Positions 38,495 through 59,561 of a DNA stretch of 64,000 nucleotides are shown here, piece after piece. Positions within the stretch are counted from its first letter, which is position 1; each line of letters starts with the position of its first letter. The DNA is from Candidatus Binatia bacterium (GTDB taxonomy: Bacteria; Desulfobacterota; Binatia; UBA9968; CAXXLF01), in NCBI GenBank assembly GCA_963664015.2, contig CAXXLF010000002.1:832001-896000 (forward strand). Direction: 5' to 3'. The translations under genes and the position numbers were made by a program. The notes under the pieces are model-generated. The model was not told where the DNA came from and made no database searches. It was given only the letters and a program-made list of their open reading frames with translations.

Positions 38495-38573
38495 TGCCTG
38501 TTATGAATTTAGATTGAAATCGACCGACGAATGCAATAGGTTTACCCTGGTCAGGCTCCAAGGAGGCAAAAAT

Positions 38574-40802
38574 ATGTCGTACCGAATCATAGGCCAACCA
38601 ACGCCTCGGGCCGAGTCTTCGAAGGTCACCGGTTCTGAACACTACACTAGCGACGTCCTCCTCCCGGGGACCCTTTGGGGCAAGGTGCTACGCAGTCCTT
38701 ACCCCCATGCGCGCATCGTCCACATGGACACCTCTCGTGCCGAGGCCGCAACCGGCGTACGAGCAATCCTGACCGGGAACGACGTGCGCGGGATCCTCTA
38801 CGGCCGGAACTACCGGGACCTGTCGGTCCTGGCTCAGGACCGGGTGCGATTTGTCGGCGAACGAGTGGCGGCTATCGCCGCCGACGAGCGCGACGCGGCC
38901 CAAGAGGCGCTAGACCTCATCCAAGTGGATTACGAAGAGCTCCCAGCCGTCTTCGATCCCCAAACAGCCCTCGCAGAAGGGGCCCCGATTATCCATCCGG
39001 AGGTCAACACCTACCTGGGGCTGCCCCGGCCCCTGGAGAAACCGTCCAATGCCTACGTCCACGATCTCCACGAACAAGGGGACCTGGAGACGGGGTTTGC
39101 CCAGTCGGACTTGATTGTAGAGAACACCTTTACGACCCCTCGGGTGCATCAGGCCTTTCTGGAGCCCCATTGCTGCATGGTCTGGATCGATGAACAGAAA
39201 AGGGTCCAGATCTGGTCCTCCAGCAAGGCGCCTCACGTTCTAAAAGAAAGCATGGCCGACGCCCTGAAGATTCCCCCCGAACGTATTCGGGTCAACCCCG
39301 TATCCATTGGTGGGGACTTTGGCGGTAAAGGCGGGGCCCTCGACGAGCCTATCGCCTATTACCTCGCCCAGCGTTCCGGCCGGCCGGTAAAGATGATCAT
39401 GGATTACCAGGAGGAGTTCATGGCCGGAGACCCACGCCATGCGGCCATCTTCAAGATGAAAACAGGCGTCAAACGAGACGGCACTCTCGTGGCCCACCAG
39501 ATGGAGGCCTACTTCGACAGCGGCGCTTATGGCGGACTCAGGCCCGGAGCCAGTATCAATGGAGCCAGTAAAGGCGGCACCTGGTACCGCTGCCCCCATG
39601 CCCGCATCTCGGTCAAGCGGATCTACACCAACAACATGCCCGGCGGACAGATGAGGGCGCCGGGAGAGCCCCAGTCGTACTTCGCCGCCGAATCCCATAT
39701 GGACTGTGTCGCGCATAAACTCGGGATAGACCCACTGGAGTTCCGGCGAAAGAATCTCATTGAAGAAGGAGACAGGACGCTGAATGGAGACCTCTACCAG
39801 GGGGTCAGGGCCAAGGAGACCCTGGAGGCTGCGGTGAGAGCAGCCCGCTATAACGCTCCTAGGTCGCCCAACGTCGGGCGAGGAATCGCTATGGGCCACC
39901 GGGCTCCTGGAGGAGGATTTACCTCCCTTGCGATCGAACTGAATCCCGACGGATCCGTCGTCCTGCACACTGGGGTCATAGAACAAGGGACCGGTACCTA
40001 TACCACCCACAGGCAAATCGTGGCGGAGGAATTGTCCCTTCGCCCCGATGATATCCAGATCAAGATCCTCGATACCGATTCGTCCCCTTTTGACTCGGGT
40101 ATCGGTGGCAGCCGAGGAACTCGCACCGCCACCCAAACGGCTTTTGAAGCTGCTATAGAAACCAAACAGGAGCTATTTCGCATGGCGGAAGAGCACCTGG
40201 GATGGTCTCGGGCAGAATTGACCCTGGTGGGCAGGGATATCGTTCGCAAGAGAACACGAGAGCGCCACCGTTGGGACCGACTCCTGGCCCGGGCGGGCCG
40301 TTCCATCTTCAAGCAGGTCATCAATCAGGACCGGGGCCACGCCCCGTTGACCGCCTTCACCGCCCAGGTTGCCGAGGTCTCGGTGGATCCCGAGACCGGA
40401 AAGGTTCAGCTCCTTCACTTTACGACGGCTCACGACGTGGGGACGATCATCAATCCGATCGGCCACCAGGGACAGATAGACGGAGGAGTCGTTCAAGGCA
40501 TCGGCTTTGCACTGACGGAAGAGCTCCACGTAGACGGGGGTCGCGTGGGGACACTCCACTTCGGGGATTACAAGATTCCTACAGCAAGAGATATTCCTAC
40601 GCTAAGAACCGTGATCGTCAAAGGCAAAGATGGGGTGGGGCCGTACAAGGCCAAAGGAATCGGTGAAAACCCCAACACGCCGGTGGCCGGGGCGATAGCC
40701 AATGCGGTGGAAGACGCCGTGGGTGTCCGTATTCGCGACCTTCCCGTCACAGCCGAGAAGGTCTGCAAGGCCCTACATGCAAAGAAAGTAAATACGATCT
40801 AG
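38574..40802 (+). CDS. Xanthine dehydrogenase family molybdopterin-binding large subunit
   Basis: KVTG..Y, LRSPYPHARI, HQAFLEP, GGDFGGK, MRAPGEPQ, GQIDGG..QGIG, AKGIGE; AGGAGG SD. Confidence 0.93.
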   Translation: MSYRIIGQPTPRAESSKVTGSEHYTSDVLLPGTLWGKVLRSPYPHARIVHMDTSRAEAATGVRAILTGNDVRGILYGRNYRDLSVLAQDRVRFVGERVAAIAADERDAAQEALDLIQVDYEELPAVFDPQTALAEGAPIIHPEVNTYLGLPRPLEKPSNAYVHDLHEQGDLETGFAQSDLIVENTFTTPRVHQAFLEPHCCMVWIDEQKRVQIWSSSKAPHVLKESMADALKIPPERIRVNPVSIGGDFGGKGGALDEPIAYYLAQRSGRPVKMIMDYQEEFMAGDPRHAAIFKMKTGVKRDGTLVAHQMEAYFDSGAYGGLRPGASINGASKGGTWYRCPHARISVKRIYTNNMPGGQMRAPGEPQSYFAAESHMDCVAHKLGIDPLEFRRKNLIEEGDRTLNGDLYQGVRAKETLEAAVRAARYNAPRSPNVGRGIAMGHRAPGGGFTSLAIELNPDGSVVLHTGVIEQGTGTYTTHRQIVAEELSLRPDDIQIKILDTDSSPFDSGIGGSRGTRTATQTAFEAAIETKQELFRMAEEHLGWSRAELTLVGRDIVRKRTRERHRWDRLLARAGRSIFKQVINQDRGHAPLTAFTAQVAEVSVDPETGKVQLLHFTTAHDVGTIINPIGHQGQIDGGVVQGIGFALTEELHVDGGRVGTLHFGDYKIPTARDIPTLRTVIVKGKDGVGPYKAKGIGENPNTPVAGAIANAVEDAVGVRIRDLPVTAEKVCKALHAKKVNTI

Positions 40803-45790: not shown

Positions 45791-46603
45791 TTTGATGGAC
45801 GGGCACAACGGAAGCCGATATTATGATGCCCCGACCGGTAGTTTCGGGAGAGATCTCGGCCTCGCTGAGTTGTCGTCAACTCCTCCGGCTGTGAATAGTG
45901 GCCGCCCCCCACGAGTGCCGCGAACAGGCCCGGGCTCAGCCGCCTCACGACCATCGAGAGCATCGTACGGGTACGATCGATAGATACTGCTCACCCATTC
46001 CCAGACGTTTCCGCTGAGATCCAAAACACCATCAGGACTGGCCCCTCTGGGAAAACTCCCCACGGGAGCGGTTTCATTCCAACCCGCTTGGAACTGTCCC
46101 CGGCTCAAGTCCGGCGGGCTAGCCCCCCACGGGAACCTGCGCCCATCGGTTCCACTGGCCGCCTTTTCCCATTCGGCCTCGGTGGGCAGGCGCCTTCCCG
46201 CCCAGGCGCAGTACTTTCGCGCACCCGACCAGGAGACTTCAACCACCGGATGATGACCGTAACCCGGGTCTGCCGCCCATTCTCCGTCTGTCCAGTGAAT
46301 GCGCGCGTCATCGTCATCGATGTCATAAAACCTCTCCCCCTCGGATCCGGTTGGTCCCATGGCGTTGAGGAATACAGCAAACTGACGGATGGTCACCGGT
46401 GTGCGATCGATGAAACACGCCGGTAGCTCTACACGATGGCGCGGTCTCTCATCCGCCGGTCCCGAATCGCTCCCCATCGTAAAGGGGCCCGCAGGGATAG
46501 GGATCAGCGGCGTGAGCCCACCCTTTCCATCCTGCCCGTAGCTAACACCCCAGGGCACCAAGCAAAGGAGGAGTACTTGAACTAACACAGTGAATCGACT
46601 CAT
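45772..46603 (-). CDS. Secreted FGE-sulfatase (SUMF1/EgtB/PvdO) domain protein, frameshifted at a G6 run
   Basis: IPAGPFTMGS, ERPRHRV, RRLPTEAEWEKAA, DLSGNVWEW; removing one G at 45905-45910 restores RGG...NIGFRCAR. Confidence 0.82.
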
Positions 46604-46756
46604 GGTCTTTATGCATCCGAGATAAGAGGCAGCCATCCTAGCATTTCACAACTCCGCACACCACGCTCTTGAGTACACGTCATTTAATTTTCCATATTGA
46701 CTCGACCCCAATTGGCCTCTATAGTTGTTACAGAATCCGGTCGCCCAACCGTTCTC

Positions 46757-47914
46757 ATGCCCAGTTCAATGCCAGCAGACATTACCTTTCAACGCCGCGG
46801 AACCGTCGAAGGTTTTTTTGGACCTCCTTGGAGTATGTCCCATCGCGCTGACCTGTTCGTCTTCGGCCAAAGACACGGCATGAATACTTACCTCTACGCG
46901 CCAAAGGATGACCCCTACCATCGGGAGCACTGGGAAAAACCCTACCCGGAATCTCAGTGGAAGGAGTTGTTAAATCTTATTACCCTGGCACATCAGCATT
47001 GGATCGACTTCGTTTACGGTTTCCATCCTGGGAAGAATCTGCACTTCACCGCGGACGAACCTATCGACTGGTTGCTGCGTAAAGCCAAACTCCTCTATGA
47101 CGCTGGAGTGCGGACCTTCGCGGTCCTATTTGACGACATTCCCTCCTCCTTGGAATTTTCCGAAGACAAAAAGCAGTATCAGGGAAGTCTCGCTCGAGCC
47201 GAAGGTCAATGGCTCAAGCGCATCCTGGAACAACAGCCAACCAGCTGGAATGGGGTCGAATGGTGGATCTGTCCATCCTATTATACTGAAGACCCACTTC
47301 TCGCCCGCGTCTTCGGCAAATTTGAACCCTCGTTTCTGGAGACCCTGAGCCAGAACTTACCCGCTCCCGTGGCCTGTTTCTGGACCGGTCCGTTGGTTGT
47401 CTCTGAATCCATTAGCCTGACCCATGTGCAAAAGGTCATCAATGCTCTAAACCATCGCCTGATCTTATGGGACAATTACCCGGTCAACGATCTGAGCATG
47501 AGCATGGAGATGCATCTGGACCCAATCACAGGCCGGGACCCGCGGCTACCAGAGCAGGTCTATGGTTATTTGAATAACCCCTTGGTCCAGGCCTCTTTAA
47601 GCTTGATCCCCCTGGCCACGTGCTTCGACTTCGCCGCTAACACCCGAACCTACGACCCGGAGCGTAGCTGGGAGCGCGGCGTGACCGAGTGTTTCGGGAA
47701 AGAGGCCCTTATCCACTGGCAGGTATTGCGCGAATTCTATAATAGGATCAATCCATTAAAAGAAAAAAAACGCCCCATCCGCCTGACCGCTGAGGAGCGC
47801 TCGGCTCTCGAACGGGCCCACGGTTACCTGTTGGAACATGGGAACGAACCCTGGGTTAGAGAGTTTGCTCCCTGGCTTGCGATCTTAAAAGCGAATCTGG
47901 GAGTTGATCAATGA
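46757..47914 (+). CDS. GH84 O-GlcNAcase/beta-N-acetylglucosaminidase catalytic-domain protein, no signal peptide
   Basis: RGTVEGFFGPPWS, MNTYLYAPKDDPYHR..W, FAVLFDDI (catalytic DD), CPSYY, FWTGP.V, ILWDNYPVND. Confidence 0.92.
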   Translation: MPSSMPADITFQRRGTVEGFFGPPWSMSHRADLFVFGQRHGMNTYLYAPKDDPYHREHWEKPYPESQWKELLNLITLAHQHWIDFVYGFHPGKNLHFTADEPIDWLLRKAKLLYDAGVRTFAVLFDDIPSSLEFSEDKKQYQGSLARAEGQWLKRILEQQPTSWNGVEWWICPSYYTEDPLLARVFGKFEPSFLETLSQNLPAPVACFWTGPLVVSESISLTHVQKVINALNHRLILWDNYPVNDLSMSMEMHLDPITGRDPRLPEQVYGYLNNPLVQASLSLIPLATCFDFAANTRTYDPERSWERGVTECFGKEALIHWQVLREFYNRINPLKEKKRPIRLTAEERSALERAHGYLLEHGNEPWVREFAPWLAILKANLGVDQ

Positions 47915-48024
47915 CCATAAGTATCTTAAAGTTACAAAATTCAATCTACGAGCAGGATCCGTAATGGGCTCAAACGTCGGCTGAAATTTTTTTACCGACG
48001 CCTCCTTGCCTCAATCAAACCATC

Positions 48025-48981
48025 GTGAAGATCCAACTCGTAACACCCGCACCGGCCGACGCTCGAAACGGCAATCGCATGACGGCTTTGCGATGGGCCA
48101 GAATCTTACAACGGCAACGCCACCATGTCATCATTTCGGGCCGCTATTCGGGCCGACCTTGCGACCTCGTGATCGCCCTCCATGCGCTACGCAGTTACGA
48201 ATCGATCCGCCACTATCGGGATCTGCATCCGACAGCGCCACTGATCGTTGCCCTAACTGGCACGGATCTCTACCGGGATATACGCACCAATTCCCATGCA
48301 AGGGAATCCCTTGAACTGGCCACTCGACTCGTTGTGTTGCAGAAAAAGGCCAAGGATGATCTTCCCCGCCATCTCCATCAAAAGACACGAGTCATCTATC
48401 AGTCAGCGCCACGACTTCAGGGTACACCTCCGGAGAGTGAGCGGATCTTCAAGGTCTGCGTAGTCGGACATATGCGATCCGAGAAAGACCCCATGCGCAC
48501 CGCCATGGCCGCCCGTCTTCTTCCTTCGACCTCCCGAATAGCAGTCCTCCATATCGGCCGCGCCCTGACCGAGGACTTCCATCACCGCGCCGGACGGGAG
48601 GCCAAGCGAAACCCACGATATCGGTGGCTCGGGGACCTGCCCCATTGGAAGACTCGCAGGATATTGGCCGGATGCCATCTCTTGTCCCTGACATCGAGAA
48701 TGGAAGGGAGTTCCAATGTGCTCTCTGAGGCCATCGCCTCATCGGTCCCGGTGGTCGCCTCTAAAATCGCTGGACTCATAGGCACCCTGGGGGATCAGTA
48801 TTCAGGATACTTCCCCGTGGGCGATACTCGAGCGCTGTCTCACTTGCTCAGAAAAGTTGAGAACAACCCCAAGTTTTATCGTGAGCTCAAAAAGCACAGT
48901 AGGCGGCTATTTTCCCTGGTGGACCCCCGGGTTGAATACAAGTCGTGGTCCAAGCTCCTGAAAGAACTCCGCAAGCCATAA
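48025..48981 (+). CDS. senB: SenB-type selenosugar synthase (TIGR04348-like GT-B glycosyltransferase)
   Basis: TPAP...NGNRMTALRWA, IALHALRS, LTGTDLYRD, VGHMRSEKDP, SRMEGSSNVLSEA, GLIGTLG..Y.GYFPVGD. Confidence 0.85.
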   Translation: MKIQLVTPAPADARNGNRMTALRWARILQRQRHHVIISGRYSGRPCDLVIALHALRSYESIRHYRDLHPTAPLIVALTGTDLYRDIRTNSHARESLELATRLVVLQKKAKDDLPRHLHQKTRVIYQSAPRLQGTPPESERIFKVCVVGHMRSEKDPMRTAMAARLLPSTSRIAVLHIGRALTEDFHHRAGREAKRNPRYRWLGDLPHWKTRRILAGCHLLSLTSRMEGSSNVLSEAIASSVPVVASKIAGLIGTLGDQYSGYFPVGDTRALSHLLRKVENNPKFYRELKKHSRRLFSLVDPRVEYKSWSKLLKELRKP

Positions 48982-48986
48982 GGCTC

Positions 48987-49005
48987 GTGCCACCACTCTT
49001 GGCAC
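48987..49005 (+). terminator. Hairpin right after senB (no U-tract)
   Basis: GTGCCA-CCACTCT-TGGCAC. Confidence 0.3.
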
Positions 49006-49370
49006 TGGGACCCGTTATGGAACAATGATCCGCGACTCTACAGGGGAACCCTCGATAAAATTTGATCTGTCGTTCAACCTGCCAGTTTGACCTATTCAAC
49101 CAATTCCACAGGCTCACGGTCATCGTGAGGTACTTGAACCATGAGGTTCTCGACAGGTTGCCCCCTCGAACCATCCATTCACCCCATTCACGATCCGTCT
49201 CCCAAAGGACTATCTGTCAGTCTCAATTATGAACCACTGTGGCCGTCCTCGGGCTGACAGTTAAAGTTGGGCTCCGCTTTACTCGGTCAGTCCCGAGGCC
49301 ATCAAGGGTCAATTCGGCACACGACGGTACAGGACCGAATTCCGATACCCGCGGGCTCACGGTGTCTGCA

Positions 49371-49974: not shown

Positions 49975-51956
49975 TTAATGCACCGTTTTGCTTCTGGTGA
50001 GTTGCAAGTTCCTGTTGGAATCCACCTTTGCCGCCATCCCGGTGGCACGACAACGGTAGAGCTAAACTCGTAGATCACCGCAGGCCCATCAACCCTACTC
50101 CCCGTATTCAGTCTCTCGCGCTGGTAAACGGAACAACGGCGCATGGGTCCGGAGAAAAACACACTCTTGTTACCCAAGAACCCGGGTTGTTTCCTGTCCC
50201 TCCCCCAACACCCCTGCCCGCCTTTATCGATTTACCCTTACCTTCGATACGTACCATCAAGGTGACTAGCTCTATATCCTTCCGAGGGTCACTGTGACCA
50301 AAGCGAGACTCGTGCAGCTGATGGAACCGGCCGACAAAACCCTTTTTCCACGGGATCGTCAACTTGTAGGCCTGTCCCACGTAACGGACATCCACCCAGA
50401 AGCGAATCTTTACCTTGCTTCTTTCCAGGCCATCCCGTTGCATCTCTTTTAACCCCAACTCTTTCAAGACCAACAGCCTTCCATTAATCTTTCTGTATTC
50501 GGGCCGCGACTCAAGGATTGACAAGGAAAAATCCCTGACCAATGGGGTGACGGCCATTCCCCAAGCGGAAAAGAGACCGGGCCAAAGAGGGATGAGCAGA
50601 CGAAATATACCAAGACCCTCCGCAAGCTCCGCCGCGTGAAGGCCACCGGCACCACCAAAGGCAAACAGGGTAAAATTTCTGGGATCCAGACCCCGTTCGA
50701 GAGTCACAGCCCGGATTGCACGGTCCATATTACTGTTTACCACCTGTAGAATGCCCCAGGCGATCATCTCAGAATCCAATCCAACTTGTCGCGCTAACTC
50801 TCTCATACTACTTCGAGTTCGACGGAGTTCAAGTGCGATCCGACCGCCCAGAAAACGCTCAGGATCCAAACGCCCGAGAACAAGGTTGGCATCGGTAACT
50901 GTTATATCGCGCCCCTTGCCATAACAGACGGGGCCCGGTTCCGCACCCGCGCTCTCGGGTCCCACTTTCAATGCACCGCCCGCGTCCAACCTAGCAACGG
51001 ACCCCCCTCCGGCACCGACAGTGTGAATATCCACCATGGGGACCTTCACGGGAACACCTGCCACCACCTTCTCAGCGGTCAGGGGAATTTCTCTCTCCAC
51101 AGGACACACATCGGTCGATGTCCCGCCCATATCGAGACTAATGATCTTTCCAATCCCGGCCTGCCGGGCTAACTGATGGGCGGCAACGACCCCGAGAGTA
51201 GCGTCCTTACGGATTGCTCACGGGCCATACGTGCAGTCATGGCTCCCCCCATTGGACTGCATGACCCGGAATTCCCCCGTGAACTTTTTACTCCCCCGTT
51301 TGAATACCCGATCTAAGTCCAGGATATGGCGGAAAATGGCAGGCGTCACCTAGGCGTTGAGTACCGTCGTGGAAAACCGTTCGTACTCTCGATACTCGGG
51401 AACAATCCTATGAGATAAAGATACAGGGAGCCCCAGGGCCCCAAGTTCTCGAGCCACCCTCTTCTCGTGGGTCGGATTTCGATAGGAGTGAAGGAAACCC
51501 ACTGCCACCGATTCCACGCCCATATCCCGAATCCGTATTTTGACTTGCTTCAGTTCCCTGAGGGAGAGTGAAATAAGGACGCGACCATCGGCCAGAATTC
51601 GTTCCTTCACGCCAAAACGTAGGGAACGGGACACCAAGGGCACAAGTGGCCTTGGTTCAAGTGCGTAAAGATCAGAGCGAGCCTGGCGGCCGATCTCGAT
51701 CAAGTCTTCAAACCCTCGGGTCGTCAGCCACGCCACCCTTCGCCCCATTTCGTTCCAACAAGGCGTTGGTCGCCACCGTGGCTCCATAGGTAACCCGTAT
51801 CATTCCTGCCTGATCGATGAGTTCTTTCATGCCTGTCAATACGGCACGGGCGGGGTTGCCGGGGGTCGACGGCACCTTGTGGACAGCAATCCCCTTCGTA
51901 CCGAGCAGGACAAAATCAGTAAATGTTCCTCCAGTATCAATCCCTAAAAGAACCAT
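49975..51956 (-). pseudogene. Hydantoinase A/5-oxoprolinase ATP-binding subunit, disrupted
   Basis: GIDTGGTFTD, KVPSTP, GFLHSY.NP.HE, EYREYERFSTT, DMGGTSTD, VGAGGGS, FGGAGGLHA; TAG at 51350 and several frameshifts. Confidence 0.9.
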
Positions 51957-54022: not shown

Positions 54023-56299
54023 TTAGGGAGAAGAAAGGGGGAGGCCCAGACCTCGGAAGACCTTCTCGGACGTTATGGGAAGTTCCATCAGGCGGACACC
54101 GGTAGCGTTATAGACGGCGTTGGCAATGGCCGGTGCGACGATGCCAATGCCCGACTCGGCCACCGGCTTGGCGCTAAAGGGGCCCGGCCCCTCATACACC
54201 TGAACCCTGGAAGTACTCAAGGGTGGAACGTCCCATATGGTGGGGATCTTATAGTCGCCGTGACTCAGGGTCAGAACTCGACCGTCTTCCACCACAAGGT
54301 GTTCCATGAGGGATTGTCCCGTTCCCTGAATAATGGCGCCCTCGATCTGGCCTTGATGGATCAGTGGATTGATGATCCTGGAAGAATCCATAGTGAAATA
54401 GAGCTGACGAACCCTGATCTGGCCCGTTTCCACATCGACCTCCACGTCAGCGATCATTGCCTGAAAAACATACACCTCAGGCCGGCTACCCTTGCAGTGA
54501 CCGAAACCACGAAGCGGACTTTTAGCAGTCAGACGAGCAATGGATAGTAGGTCCAAGGACCGTTTTTTGGCTCCTCGCGTCCAGGCCCGCCCCGTTTCCC
54601 ATTGGACCTCATTTTCATCGAGTTTCCATGCTGAGGCAGCTTGCTCGCGCAGCTGTTTGATGAGGGAGTGGGTGGCACGAACAACTGCCTGCCCTTCTAT
54701 ATAAGTCCCCCTTTGTCCCCGCACCCCTTCATCGTAGGTTCCGGTATCGGTCCCCTTGACGTCGATCTCAACTCGCTCCGCCTCAATCCCTAGGAGTTCG
54801 GCCGCGACCTGCCGATGCATGGTATAGGCACCCACCCCGACGTCACGCACTGCAGTCGCCAAACGTAAGGTTCCATCGGGATCCAAAAACAGTTCGACAC
54901 TGGATTCTCCCGTACCAATGTGCCGAAAGCCCAGGGCCAGGCCTCGCCCTGTAACCACTCGCCCCTGGCCTTGTCCCCTCCGTCGGGGGCCCGGGCGCCG
55001 CTTTGAGACCTTTGCCACCTGACGTAGAACATCCAGAGCACGGGGGTCCCGTAAGGGCTCATCCGTAGGCTTGGCGTCTCCTTCTCGCAGCGCGTTGATC
55101 ATGCGAAATTCATAGGCGTCGATACCAAGCGCCTCGGCCATCATATCCATGTGACTTTCAACGGCAAAAAGGGTCTGCACCTCTCCCGGGGCCCGAAAGA
55201 ATCCGGTGGGCACCTGATTGGTGTAAATACTGTAACCCTCCATTCGCACGTGGGGGGTGCGGTAACAACCCGCCAGCAGAAAAGTCCCATTAAGGCCATT
55301 GCGTGGCGTGCGTGCCGCATAGGCTCCGCCGTTGTAGTAGACCTTACCGTCCCATGCCCAAATTCTCCCGTCCCTCTTCACACCAGTTCGAAGCACGACC
55401 ACGGCCGAATGACGTGGTTGGCCGTCGAGCAACTCCTGGGTATAGCTCTCCTGAACTCGTACGGGCTGACCCGACGCGCGGGCGAGATAATAGTTGCAGA
55501 GGATATCGTCATAGCCCAACTTGCCGCCGAAGGAGCCCCCTGTGGAAACCGGGTGAACGACGATCATCTCTTCGGGCAAGTCCAGGTGTGCTGCCAACTT
55601 GCTACGCACCATAAAGGGGGCCTGATGGCAGTGCCAAACGGATATCCTCCCCTGACTGTCGACTTCCACGAGTCCCGCTCGTGGCTCTATGAAGCTCTGA
55701 TGCACCATGGGAATGGTAAAGGTGCTGTCGAACACCTTATCACACTCGCCAAATCCTATTTCGATGTCTCCCTTACCTGCCCGCTCCACCGATTGGACGT
55801 TTTTCAACACGGGCTCCTTGTGCATCCCTTCGTACTCGTCGTAGTTGGGGTGGAGCAGCGGGGCCCCAGGCTTTAAGGCCTCCAGCGGTTCATATACGGC
55901 TGGCAGTTCTTCGTAATTGACCTCTATCAGACTCACGGCCTCCTCGGCGAGGTCCTTGTCGAGAGCAGCAACCCCAGCGACCTTCTCTCCGATATAACGC
56001 ACCCGATCCTGTGCGAGGGCGGGCATATCCTCAAGGCCGAGCCCCTCCAGCCGCGGTGAAACGTCTTTCCCGGTGATAACCGCCTTGACACCGGGGATTT
56101 TGAGCGCACGGCTCGCATTGATATTCAGGATACGGGCATGAGGATAGGGGCTACGTAGAAACCCGCCCCAGAGGGTGTTGGGACGCTTCACGTCTGCGGT
56201 GTAAACACAGGAGCCGGAAACTTTGCTCAAGCCCTCCACTCTTGGGAGCCCAAGACCTACGGCGTGAGCCTTGGCGCGTCTGTCATTGGATACGGACAT
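54023..56299 (-). CDS. Xanthine dehydrogenase family molybdopterin-binding large subunit (second copy)
   Basis: LRSPYPHARI, HQSFIEP, GGSFGGK, FRAPGEVQ, GQIEG..IQG, AKPVAE. Confidence 0.92.
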   Translation of the reverse strand: MSVSNDRRAKAHAVGLGLPRVEGLSKVSGSCVYTADVKRPNTLWGGFLRSPYPHARILNINASRALKIPGVKAVITGKDVSPRLEGLGLEDMPALAQDRVRYIGEKVAGVAALDKDLAEEAVSLIEVNYEELPAVYEPLEALKPGAPLLHPNYDEYEGMHKEPVLKNVQSVERAGKGDIEIGFGECDKVFDSTFTIPMVHQSFIEPRAGLVEVDSQGRISVWHCHQAPFMVRSKLAAHLDLPEEMIVVHPVSTGGSFGGKLGYDDILCNYYLARASGQPVRVQESYTQELLDGQPRHSAVVVLRTGVKRDGRIWAWDGKVYYNGGAYAARTPRNGLNGTFLLAGCYRTPHVRMEGYSIYTNQVPTGFFRAPGEVQTLFAVESHMDMMAEALGIDAYEFRMINALREGDAKPTDEPLRDPRALDVLRQVAKVSKRRPGPRRRGQGQGRVVTGRGLALGFRHIGTGESSVELFLDPDGTLRLATAVRDVGVGAYTMHRQVAAELLGIEAERVEIDVKGTDTGTYDEGVRGQRGTYIEGQAVVRATHSLIKQLREQAASAWKLDENEVQWETGRAWTRGAKKRSLDLLSIARLTAKSPLRGFGHCKGSRPEVYVFQAMIADVEVDVETGQIRVRQLYFTMDSSRIINPLIHQGQIEGAIIQGTGQSLMEHLVVEDGRVLTLSHGDYKIPTIWDVPPLSTSRVQVYEGPGPFSAKPVAESGIGIVAPAIANAVYNATGVRLMELPITSEKVFRGLGLPLSSP

Positions 56300-56561
56300 G
56301 ACATGCGAGTAACACAAAATCGCAAGTGGGGTCAAACATCAGTGGGGGACCGAATGAACAACGACTCCGGTGAGGGCGCGTTGAGAGATGGTTCAGGAGT
56401 TATTCAGACAGCGGCGACGGGAGGTTCCGACGGGTGTAGCGGGACCGCACCGTCACAGGTTTCTCTGCTTAGATGGCCTCTTCATCAAAATAACTACGTG
56501 TCTCGATTCCGAGCCATGGGGGCGCGACAAAGAAGGGCTCCATGAGCTCCAGGTTGAGGTC

Positions 56562-57995
56562 CTAACTGTCCTGGCGAAGGTTCTTAGGAGCCGAATATTC
56601 CAGCTGAGCCCCATCATCCGTATTGGTCACGGCTCCATCGGAAAAGGCTCTGAGTTCCTTCGTCCCCATGCGGTAGAACCTCAGGACCAAGGTGATATCG
56701 CTCAGGTTCAACTCTTGCAGATCTTCCTTCAACGTTGGATGGCTAGAATAAATCTGTCGTAAGGCTTCGACATCGAAGACCTGATTGATACTGCTTCCCA
56801 CCAGCAGGAAGCCGTCGTCTTCAAACTCCCCCATACGGAGACATGGCTAAAGGTTTCACCAAAAGCACGAAAAACCATCCGGAGGTCATCCAGTAATATG
56901 GAATAGTTGTGTATCCATTGGGCAAAAATGCCATCTTTATTGAGTTTAGACTTTGCGGCCTCATAGAATTCCCGTGTGTAGAGATTAGCGATTTCCGAGA
57001 TCCAGGGATTCGAAGGCTCGGAGATAATCACGTCGTAGTGTTTAGGACTGGCGAGGATATAGTTACGAGCGTCGGTTAAGGTAATGCGAACCCTTGGGTT
57101 TTGCAGGATGTTGCCGTTCAAGTCGTTGAATATTTCGGCCGCCTCAAGGATAGCCGGCTCTATCTCCATGACCTCGATCTCACGAACGGGAAAATCGCTG
57201 ACAGCTTTAACGTCACCAGCAGGGTGGTAAATGAGTAGATTGAGCTACTGATAACCATAGTTAATGCACAAGTCCAACTGTTCTCGTAGAGCAGGGCGGA
57301 AAATCCAGAAAATCCAATTTAGAGGAGAAGCACCGACCCCAACCAGGAAGGTCGGTTGCTGGGTTCGTTCTGCAACGATGGGTCGCCGGGGGTTCTCAGT
57401 TCGTCGGACTCATCCTTAGCCGGCGTCCAGTCGATGGCAATGATTACCCTGGCCACGGTCAGATTCAATGTCGCGGCCAGATAAACAGTCGAACGCATTT
57501 CCAGAGCAGGGATTAAACTGTAGCCAGCAGCATCACAACCGACTACCGCACCGATGGTGTTGATTGCATAGAGGTCCCCGAGTCGACGCCCGAGAACATT
57601 CAAATTGCGTATAAGAAAACGACTGAGGATAGGGAGCGTGGCCCCCATGAGCAGAGTAGGAACCATCAGGAAGACAAAGGACAGTAGAAAGAGAATCAGA
57701 TTGAAAGCTAGGGGCAAGGACTTGTTAAGGGAAGAGAGAGGAATGTACACGCCTCTCACAAGATAAAAGATCCAGGGCACGAGCAACCCATAAAACCCCA
57801 CGCCACCTCGAGGAAACCATAAAAGAGAAAGTTATTCTTTCCCCGGTCCGCTATCCGGCCAAAGAGATAACTTCCCAAGGCCAGGCCGGCCATAAAGGCG
57901 GTCAGAACCGTGGCCACGGCGTACGTGGTGTTACCAAAGACCTGGGTCTGCATCCGGGTCCAAACCACTTCGTAGATAAGACCCGACATGCCGGA
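56562..57995 (-). pseudogene. Fused membrane/spermidine synthase (SpeE-like) protein, fragmented
   Basis: SGMSGLIYEVVW.R, PTLLMGATLP, LYAINTIGA, EIEP, DARNY, YDVIISEPSNPW, NTDD..LEY across four frames; large central deletion near 57215. Confidence 0.85.
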
Positions 57996-58017
57996 GGATT
58001 GAAGGATTCGAGCGCAC

Positions 58018-58035
58018 AAAGCCCCTTACGGGGCT
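58018..58035 (-). terminator. Putative terminator of the UbiD operon
   Basis: Minus strand AGCCCC-GTAA-GGGGCT followed by TT (short U-tract). Confidence 0.4.
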
Positions 58036-58127
58036 CCGCCTATTAGACGAGGCTGGGTTCCGCTCACCTATTCTCAACGGCCACGCTTGAACGCGAATTC
58101 AGCGGTATGCGACAGGTGGGATCGTCT

Positions 58128-59561
58128 TTACAGTTGTGATTGCCACTTGGCCAGCATTTGGGCCTTTTGGGCTGGGGTGGACTCAGCGACTACGGGGAAT
58201 TCATTACGCCATTCATACGGTCGAGTCGCATCGATAATGGCCCGCGACATCCCATAGTCACGGCGCTTTCTTTGCTCCGGCGAAATCATAGGATCGAGGG
58301 GACCGCTCAGGCACCGGCGAAGGATTTCGATATCCTGAGCCGGGTCACTCCGCGTGCACACCGCCCACATCACCTCAGGCAGATCTCTTGGGTTAATGTC
58401 TTCATCGACCACGATCACGTAACGCCCCATGTATGCACCACCCCGGGATTGGCAAACGATCGACGCCGCCTGCCGCGCATGACCGGGATAGAGCTGCTGG
58501 ATGGAAATGACGTTGAGCATATGACCACCACCTACCTCGTGGAACCAGACCCCCTTCACCCCAGGTATCCCCGCGCCCTCAAGCTGTTCGTAAATGGCCG
58601 CCGAGCGCAGGATGGACTGCATGTAGACCTTTCCCGAAGGGGGTTTGACGGGAGGTGAACCCAGGAGGATGGGATCGTTGCGGTGATAGAGGGCTTTGAC
58701 CTGAACCACAGGTTCTGGCCGGGCACCGCTACCGTAATACCCCGTCCACTCGCCGAATGGTCCCTCTGGTCTTCGGTCTTCGGGCATCACGAAACCCTCT
58801 ACCACGATCTCGGCATCCGCCGGTATGGGAAGCCCTGTCACCGGACCGCGAATCACCCGTACCGGTTCGCCCTTGATCCCTCCCACGAACTCCAGTTCGA
58901 ACTGGCCGTGGGGCATACCCCAGCTGGCCACCATGTGCAATAAGGGGTCGGCGCCAAACACCGCCACAACGGGCATGGGTTCATTGCGGGCAAACCACTT
59001 GTCCCGATGAATCCCGCCGTCATGACTGGGGGAGATATAGACGAAGATGTGGTCTCGATCGTGCACCATGACACGGTAGGCCCCCATATTGAGGGAATCG
59101 TTTTCCGGATCCCGGGTAATGATCGCATCTCCCGTGCCCAGATAGCGCCCACCGTCATGCTCGTGCCAGCGGGGCGTCGGGAACTTCCACATGTCGATCT
59201 GATCGCCGCGCAGCACGTTCTCCAGGATGGGGCCCTCGTCGACGTATTCCACTGGAGCCGGACGAATGGAACGGCGCTTCTCGCGCCATGCGGCGATGAG
59301 GCCGGGTTCGTCCAGATCCGTGGGAAGCCCCAGAGTCAAGGCGGCCCTTTTTCGCGAACCCGAGTCGTTGATCAGGATCCGATAACCGGAAGGGTAGTCC
59401 TGAATATCGTCGAAGATCACCGCCGGCTGCTGGTTGGCCCGCATGATGTGCTCCGCCAGCACTCCGATCTCTACGTCCCAGTGGGCCCCCTTGAGCACTT
59501 TGAGCTCACCCATACGCTCCGTATGTTCCAACCATGTTCTCAAGTCGTTGTACTGTAGCAA
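58128..59561 (-). CDS. UbiD family decarboxylase
   Basis: YNDLR.WL, HEHDGGRYLGT, NMGAYR, EGPFGEWTGYY, WAVCTR.DP, IDATRP; TTG start with GGGAG SD. Confidence 0.92.
   Translation of the reverse strand: MLQYNDLRTWLEHTERMGELKVLKGAHWDVEIGVLAEHIMRANQQPAVIFDDIQDYPSGYRILINDSGSRKRAALTLGLPTDLDEPGLIAAWREKRRSIRPAPVEYVDEGPILENVLRGDQIDMWKFPTPRWHEHDGGRYLGTGDAIITRDPENDSLNMGAYRVMVHDRDHIFVYISPSHDGGIHRDKWFARNEPMPVVAVFGADPLLHMVASWGMPHGQFELEFVGGIKGEPVRVIRGPVTGLPIPADAEIVVEGFVMPEDRRPEGPFGEWTGYYGSGARPEPVVQVKALYHRNDPILLGSPPVKPPSGKVYMQSILRSAAIYEQLEGAGIPGVKGVWFHEVGGGHMLNVISIQQLYPGHARQAASIVCQSRGGAYMGRYVIVVDEDINPRDLPEVMWAVCTRSDPAQDIEILRRCLSGPLDPMISPEQRKRRDYGMSRAIIDATRPYEWRNEFPVVAESTPAQKAQMLAKWQSQL

Follow-up and report, generated by a model that had tools for sequence, protein, structure and literature searches.

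What does a glycoside hydrolase do beside a selenosugar synthase? This question is raised by two neighbouring genes in a 64-kb stretch of bacterial DNA (G000:C2:832001-896000, hereafter the window), which belongs to a 3.5-Mb genome in two contigs whose closest public relatives are metagenome-assembled genomes (MAGs) labelled Candidatus Binatia. One gene encodes a putative beta-N-acetylglucosaminidase of family GH84 and the other a putative SenB, the selenosugar synthase of selenoneine synthesis. Selenoneine synthesis is described as a three-enzyme pathway whose sugar carrier leaves by itself, and an N-acetylglucosamine (GlcNAc) hydrolase gene standing ahead of senA and senB across a bacterial order would point to a missing step, to proofreading or salvage of a selenoether, or to recycling of the selenosugar. 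The initial annotation had interpreted the pair as a system that makes and cleaves selenosugars outside the selenoneine pathway. Our analysis suggests instead that the pair represents a selenoneine (sen) cluster whose senA now lies at another place in the genome, and we tentatively propose that the GH84 enzyme acts within this pathway on the conjugate of hercynine with the selenosugar seleno-N-acetylglucosamine (SeGlcNAc).

The GH84 and senB genes

Both open reading frames (ORFs) lie on the same strand, 110 nt apart according to the ORF listing, and are full length against their homologues (coordinates in Table 1). The region 46185-49100 was reproduced without difference by Logan contigs from three runs of two studies, one of which runs may be the source sample, and the GH84-senB junction was also bridged by a seawater-metagenome contig of about 97% identity from a third study. 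The two intact co-directional genes described in the initial annotation were thereby confirmed. A relative's contig carries a 3-nt deletion within the spacer (47982-47984). A promoter/terminator scan revealed no terminator-like site on the plus strand of the spacer, and no RNA runs were listed as holding window positions 46600-49000.

The GH84 protein matches the NAGidase profile PF07555 (cut-off 25 bits) with residues 34-337, which cover profile positions 1-286 of 295. No other domain, hence no carbohydrate-binding module, was found in this ORF by the Pfam search, and the N-terminus of the translation, judged by eye, enters the barrel directly without a hydrophobic leader. On these grounds the protein is predicted to be compact, single-domain, leaderless and cytoplasmic, and the initial annotation had characterised it correctly as a GH84 enzyme with an FDD pair and with neither a carbohydrate-binding module nor a signal peptide. 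Alternative starts of the ORF are TTG 46697 and ATG 46769. Because the consensus start of the homologues, which are about 381 residues long, aligns with the second Met of the 385-residue reading (46769), the real start is most likely ATG 46757 or ATG 46769 and not TTG 46697.

The catalytic apparatus of the enzyme is intact at the sequence level. In alignments with C. perfringens NagJ and the T. terrenum O-GlcNAcase (OGA), LFDDIP with its DD pair, KDDPYHRE, the tyrosine of CPSYY and WDNYPVND all coincide with their counterparts, LFDDIP being aligned to WDDI of NagJ and to FDNV of the D120N mutant in structure 5DIY. All 80 analysed loci of the GH84 clade described below retain FDDI, WDNYPVND and VEGFFG. 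The closest solved structure by sequence is the T. terrenum OGA 5DIY (E-value 2e-65), and an AlphaFold model of the window protein (pLDDT 80.8, pTM 0.82) showed a (beta/alpha)8 barrel followed by C-terminal helices. The top Foldseek matches to this model were all GH84 proteins, with 5DIY again the best (TMq 0.82).

The window enzyme thus shares the barrel, the helical C-terminal part, the DD pair and the sugar-binding motifs with the bacterial GH84 O-GlcNAcases TtOGA (5DIY), NagJ, BtGH84 and OgOGA. It differs from them in being compact and leaderless, in its location in a selenometabolite cluster, in the lack of a detected O-GlcNAc transferase (OGT) partner and in a Phe that replaces Tyr. The GT41 OGT profile PF13844 gave no match in the 97.3% complete genome G000; controls matched in 2 of 14 genomes. 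The replacement concerns the EGF(Y/F)G loop, in which Phe was found in 80 of 80 clade loci and Tyr in NagJ, CpGH84B and TtOGA. The equivalent Tyr10 of OgOGA stacks on the sugar and its N-acetyl group (PMC2973230), and this stacking could persist with the Phe of the EGFFG loop.

The second ORF is, judged by its sequence, a true SenB. The match to the equivalog profile TIGR04348 spans positions 1-309 of 310 and is the only one in the genome, and GNRMTALRW, ALHA, TGTDLY, RSEK and MEG, the motifs by which the initial annotation had rightly recognised the enzyme, are all present in the translation. Full-length similarity was found to the V. paradoxus SenB structures 8FBX and 8JJQ (E-value 3e-58). 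The residues reported for the catalytic site and selenophosphate pocket of SenB (N20, T23, H58, R61, T83, T85, R155, K158 and E231; PMC10891094) correspond to N17, T20, H53, R56, T78, T80, R151, K154 and E227 of the window protein by hand count on the alignment. Across 61 senB-bearing loci these residues are conserved, except for T or S at T23 and R or K at R61. The sugar-site motif EGGAHV is reported to be highly conserved in SenB (PMC10891094). In contrast, the window and most Binatia loci carry EGSSNV, which retains the Glu, and EGGAHV was found among the senB-bearing loci only in the Burkholderiales copy of locus L056. Furthermore, V157 of the reference SenB is Glu in the window protein.

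Linkage of GH84 with senA and senB

We looked for SenB, GH84 and SenA in forty related genomes, which belong to three families of one order, and tabulated the coordinates. In 33 of these, GH84, senA and senB lie on one strand within about 5 kb, as in G017:C33 with GH84 at 55471-56373, senA at 56627-57892 and senB at 57926-58855. Two relatives of the window's own family (G002 and G004) have GH84 and senB adjacent and senA far away, as observed for the window, which brings the linkage of GH84 and senB to 35 of 40 relatives overall. In two further genomes (G009 and G016) the pieces lie on separate contigs, in one (G023; 93% complete, 880 contigs) senA-senB is present and GH84 was not found, and in two (G001 and G003; 500 and 640 contigs) neither GH84 nor senB was found. 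A full senA (G001:C211:776-2068, 484 bits) was noted in G001, a 95% complete genome of the same family. The adjacency is accordingly not unique to the window genome but recurs in its relatives.

A profile scan of 185,579 species genomes for the GH84 clade yielded 197 confirmed loci. The best 80 of these were analysed by tblastn with the proteins of the window genome, with minimum scores of 150 bits for SenB and 140 bits for SenA, whose match also had to include the N-terminal part. Both senA and senB were found in 57 of the 80 loci, 56 of which have the order GH84, senA, senB. Four loci have senB without senA. Three of them (L038, L039 and L043) resemble the window, and the fourth is L056 from Burkholderiales, whose divergent senB lies at a distance of 2.3 kb, so that 61 of the 80 show some linkage to senB. 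The five loci with senA and without senB are all ended by a contig end within 0.9-4.2 kb. Neither sen gene was detected in 14 loci; eight of these have less than 2.5 kb of downstream sequence, and in L082 and L107, both among the short ones, the start of senA lies at the contig end below the threshold. The idea of the initial annotation that GH84 is tied to the chemistry of SenB is supported by this recurring linkage.

The flanks of the trio vary (SDR, GFO oxidoreductase, LysE, desaturase, egtD, MFS) and the trio itself is constant. Locus L043 reads egtD-GH84-senB-(MFS), and L062 reads egtD, LysE, GH84, VOC, senA, senB, MFS, with egtD 3 kb upstream of GH84-VOC-senA-senB. No selD/senC was detected within 10 kb of GH84 in any of the 80 loci (tblastn, E-value 1e-10). 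Extended clusters have further constituents: genes for a two-domain VOC/glyoxalase-like protein and for an alpha/beta hydrolase, in some cases joined by one for an NMT1-type binding protein, lie between GH84 and senA (L044, L049, L051, L062, L076 and L092), an opposite-strand MFS gene with weak similarity to Acatn follows senB (L043, L044, L051 and L062), and a LysE exporter and a fatty-acid desaturase are often encoded upstream. The Burkholderiales MAG locus L056 (6684-11128) combines within 4.5 kb the senB with EGGAHV, an ArsR-rhodanese fusion, a fatty-acid hydroxylase and GH84, without senA.

The distribution of both genes was determined in a phylum sample that comprised, besides the order, 150 evenly chosen other genomes. 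SenB was encoded in 37 of the 41 genomes of the order vs none of the 150 others, and GH84 (PF07555) in 38 of 41 vs one of 150. The relatives are not independent and no statistic was attached to this pattern. The sole GH84 outside the order, encoded by G183, was rejected as a clade member as it represents another GH84 subfamily (33% identical, 623 residues, EGYYG); its gene has unrelated neighbours coding for an AMP-ligase and a methyltransferase. Since the trio linkage is conserved, the phylum sample showed senB and this GH84 clade in the order only and no OGT was found, the sequence evidence identifies GH84 as an accessory gene that is conserved in sen clusters of the Binatia type. As GH84-senA-senB is the usual arrangement in the order, the window pair is best explained as a sen cluster whose senA moved away.

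A quick GH84 tree with SH-aLRT support only was consistent with this explanation. The window GH84 groups with L038 and L039 (SH-aLRT 98), and the four loci with a GH84-senB pair require one change on the tree; therefore, senA apparently left the cluster once in the window's lineage. We do not claim a spread of the trio over several phyla, as the tree places the rows that bear the labels Verrucomicrobiia, Syntrophobacter, Thermodesulfobacteriota and Myxococcota next to Binatia rows of nearly the same sequence. L062, L074, L087, L091, L099 and others, with labels such as Verrucomicrobiia, Udaeobacter, Chloroflexota, Syntrophobacter and Myxococcota, have GH84 sequences almost identical to those of Binatia MAGs, with branch lengths of 0.01 and 0.03 for L087 and L084, respectively, and the labels or the binning of these loci look unreliable. 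Only the GH84 subclade of Burkholderiales/Betaproteobacteria looks distinct on the tree.

The partners of the pair are encoded elsewhere in the genome. A full senA is located on the other contig just after an rpoD-like gene (G000:C1:689356-690696); its product reaches 483 bits with NF041186 (cut-off 420) and has the DinB_2 + FGE architecture. About 430 kb from the pair, selD (G000:C2:1311116-1312213, corresponding to L119 8117-9214; 378.8 bits) directly follows selB, and an in-frame TGA occupies its active-site position, as in SelD of the selenocysteine type. An egtD-like methyltransferase gene scores just below the cut-off (284.3 vs 290.9 bits), and its product is 59% identical to the EgtD encoded next to GH84-senB in L043. 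Orthologues of other cluster-associated genes are scattered over the genome as well (MFS with 74%, VOC with 52% and alpha/beta hydrolase with 57% identity). The whole selenoneine pathway is therefore predicted to be encoded in this genome in dispersed form. The statement of the initial annotation that the window contains neither senA nor selD is true of the 64-kb window only, and its placement of the pair outside the selenoneine pathway is contradicted by the full senA, the selD beside selB, the egtD-like gene and the norm of GH84-senA-senB in the order; what stands of its interpretation is the conserved link between GH84 and SenB. It had also named, as a combination adverse to its proposal, a full senA elsewhere together with a GH84 inactive on Se/S-glycosides, and the first half of this is what we found.

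The senABC clusters of Variovorax paradoxus and Amycolatopsis palatopharyngis (bioRxiv 10.1101/2022.04.13.486033) are the nearest known system. SenB and SenA are orthologous, both above cut-off, and here, too, SelD would supply selenophosphate and an EgtD-like enzyme hercynine. The co-localisation of senA, senB and senC is not observed, as the window has senB only and senA, selD and egtD are dispersed, and Binatia-type clusters generally differ in lacking a clustered selD/senC and in being led by GH84. For annotation, this means that a new pathway should not be assumed whenever senB lacks an adjoining senA or selD, and that the whole genome should be searched for the partners.

Proposed function of the GH84 enzyme

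In the canonical pathway, SenB forms beta-SeGlcNAc, the selenosugar preferred by SenA, and SenA joins it to hercynine as a selenoxide which itself was not detected in that work; the selenoxide either eliminates or is reduced, and the hercynyl-SeGlcNAc selenoether was detected in vitro with dithiothreitol (bioRxiv 10.1101/2022.04.13.486033). GH84 enzymes are retaining and beta-GlcNAc-specific and require the substrate's 2-acetamido group as well as a DD pair, which is Asp174/Asp175 in human OGA (PMC4263850). Both this specificity and the 2-acetamido requirement match the beta-GlcNAc selenosugar. The GlcNAc-shaped candidate substrates are the hercynyl-SeGlcNAc selenoether, SeGlcNAc and 2-acetamidoglucal. 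Cleavage of thioglycosides has reportedly been observed for human OGA.

Our preferred reading, which we hold tentatively, is that the pair forms the core of a Binatia-type selenoneine cluster with a relocated senA and that GH84 is dedicated to this pathway, most likely as a hydrolase of hercynyl-SeGlcNAc. SelD and the EgtD-like enzyme, both encoded elsewhere, would supply selenophosphate and hercynine, and cellular reductants would reduce the SenA selenoxide before its elimination to give the selenoether. GH84 would then hydrolyse the beta-Se-GlcNAc bond of this compound by its 2-acetamido-assisted mechanism, which would release selenoneine and GlcNAc and rescue flux from a dead-end product. 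We would expect selenoneine to leave very readily in such a reaction. Among the candidates the selenoether was ranked first because its hydrolysis turns a dead-end product into the end product of the pathway; both this substrate and the cleavage of Se-glycosides as such are what we infer for the enzyme. The more general proposal that sen-linked GH84 enzymes are natural Se-glycoside hydrolases, and that selenoneine in thiol-rich cells is made mainly via reduction of the selenoxide to hercynyl-SeGlcNAc and subsequent enzymatic deglycosylation, seems rather doubtful to us. If it were true, many uncultured bacteria, as a large group, would possess an enzyme dedicated to a step that is currently considered spontaneous, and a glycosidase with a natural selenium-linked substrate would be available, possibly as a tool that raises selenoneine yields in engineered strains.

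A precedent in function only is provided by EgtC and EgtE of ergothioneine synthesis, where the donor carrier is likewise removed after an iron enzyme has formed the C-S/C-Se bond. These proteins are an amidohydrolase and a PLP lyase with folds and chemistry unrelated to those of a glycoside hydrolase, and they are described as supposedly absent from the sen pathway (bioRxiv 10.1101/2022.04.13.486033). The ovs pathway of ovoselenol synthesis uses the same SeGlcNAc donor and also releases the sugar after formation of a selenoxide (PMC11030361). It differs by its iron enzyme OvsA and a methyltransferase; the senA product of the window genome scores as SenA. We found no relevant literature in which selenoneine, SenB or selenosugars are connected with GH84, N-acetylglucosaminidase or glycoside hydrolase. 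The section 7 table of PMC13674229, which lists families co-encoded with NHISS genes, contains no glycosidase; this coverage does not extend to the supplements of that article or to Supplementary Fig. 1 of the Kayrouz preprint.

Several observations weigh against our preferred reading. The authors of the canonical senABC study consider that spontaneous elimination makes a further enzyme unnecessary (bioRxiv 10.1101/2022.04.13.486033), and organisms with canonical senABC make selenoneine without a clustered GH84. One alternative is that GH84 hydrates the 2-acetamidoglucal formed by selenoxide elimination to GlcNAc, whereby the sugar would be recycled and a hexosaminidase inhibitor removed. In the related OvsA reaction of the ovoselenol pathway the sugar was seen to leave as 2-acetamidoglucal, described as "analogous to SenA reactivity" (PMC11030361), and N-acetyl glycals are listed as tight-binding hexosaminidase inhibitors (PMC6017319, citing Santana et al. 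2016), so that 2-acetamidoglucal would fit GH84 sites and could harm the cell if accumulated. However, for hydration of 2-acetamidoglucal by GH84 enzymes we found no evidence, tight binding suggests inhibition rather than turnover, and the canonical sen and ovs clusters do without such an enzyme. We therefore regard this alternative as highly improbable.

A further adverse point is that the split trios keep GH84 with senB and not with senA (window, L038, L039, L043 and L056), which fits a role of GH84 on SenB's own product at least equally well. The enzyme might accordingly cleave free SeGlcNAc to GlcNAc and selenide, with SeGlcNAc as a buffered, non-toxic selenium store or overflow that is drained when SenA or hercynine is limiting. 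GH84 adjoins senB in every split trio, four from Binatia in addition to L056, and no locus with enough flank has GH84 with senA alone, the five apparent cases being cut by contig ends. Moreover, senB and GH84 are jointly missing from G001 and G003, of which G001 keeps senA, and free SeGlcNAc can build up in cells, as it accumulates in an ovsA deletion mutant (PMC11030361). Against this explanation, a synthase and a hydrolase in one operon would constitute a futile cycle costing UDP-GlcNAc and ATP. The argument from the split trios is weakened because the Binatia cases are the trivial result of removing the middle gene, a single loss which corresponds to the one change on the tree, and the joint absence from G001 and G003 may reflect one deletion or an unassembled contig. 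SeGlcNAc was ranked a close second as substrate, since GH84 goes with senB where the trio is split and in Burkholderiales; as an account of the locus, its hydrolysis appears unlikely.

Finally, T. terrenum OGA, which is nearest to the window enzyme among both characterised enzymes and solved structures, is described as removing O-GlcNAc from proteins, and the catalytic motifs of the window enzyme are generic for GH84. Most clade loci come from one class, in which descent can preserve synteny, and these cases are far from independent. Six of the 80 clade loci have at least 4 kb of downstream sequence and no sen gene (L048, L057, L063 and L110 from Burkholderiales/Betaproteobacteria, L088 and L095); five of the six genomes were searched as a whole, and senB was found elsewhere in three of them (including the unpublished G193, locus L088) and not found in the other two. 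These points, too, speak against a dedicated role, and would be explained if GH84 were an ordinary cytoplasmic beta-N-acetylglucosaminidase or protein O-GlcNAcase whose position beside the sen genes reflects synteny kept by descent, with no functional connection. On the other hand, the GT41 OGT was not found in the genome, the trio is constant while the flanking genes differ among loci, and within the phylum sample neither the GH84 clade nor senB was found outside the order. In addition, members of the Burkholderiales subclade lie near senB (L056) or in genomes having senB, and the exchange of Tyr for Phe in the EGF(Y/F)G loop is invariant in the clade. An ordinary GH84 without connection to the pathway is consequently quite improbable in our view.

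Neighbouring genes in the window

The features around the pair are summarised in Table 1. Promoter-like sites in this region number 5 vs 2.4 +/- 1.7 in shuffles; site counts were not above those of shuffles and carry little weight. The TTG at 46697, with which the longest GH84 ORF starts, coincides with the first hexamer of the promoter-like site.

Table 1. Position and supporting evidence of the GH84 and senB genes and adjacent features in the window.
Feature	Positions	Strand	Evidence or remark
GH84 beta-N-acetylglucosaminidase, sen-linked clade, 385 aa	46757..47914	+	PF07555 277.5 bits
senB selenosugar synthase, 318 aa, GTG start	48025..48981	+	TIGR04348 399.1 bits vs cut-off 300
GH84-senB spacer, 110 nt	47915..48024	+	position occupied by senA in most relatives
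Promoter-like site TTGACT-17-TATAGT upstream of GH84	46697..46725	+	10/12 matches; weak evidence only
FGE-sulfatase-domain gene, leader-like N-terminus, frameshifted near 3' end	45799..46636 (ORF 45821-46636)	-	PF03781 161 bits

The divergent FGE-domain ORF upstream of GH84 was missed by the initial annotation. Its best NCBIfam match is NF041186 and corresponds to the C-terminal half of SenA. The gene was rejected as a hidden or split SenA, since it reaches only 93.6 bits (cut-off 420) over model positions 170-326, has no DinB_2 domain, possesses a leader-like N-terminus and is frameshifted. Compared with a homologue, the frame changes between 45905 and 45939, and the conserved C-terminal 47 residues are encoded in the other frame; the sequence is the same in the contigs of three runs. 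Of the 72 loci with at least 1.2 kb of sequence upstream of GH84, 27 carry a homologue of this gene there in divergent orientation at a distance of up to 3 kb.

Two further genes on the minus strand appear fragmented, namely a hydantoinase/oxoprolinase (caprolactamase-alpha-like) gene at 50108-51130 and 51350-51787, of which the fragments match parts of the profile only, and a spermidine-synthase-like gene at 56729-57169 and 57319-57801. They may be pseudogenes or result from assembly indels. The window also encodes two molybdenum hydroxylase large subunits that belong to the xanthine dehydrogenase/4-hydroxybenzoyl-CoA reductase family, at 38514-40802 on the plus strand and 54023-56335 on the minus strand, both of which score below all equivalog cut-offs.

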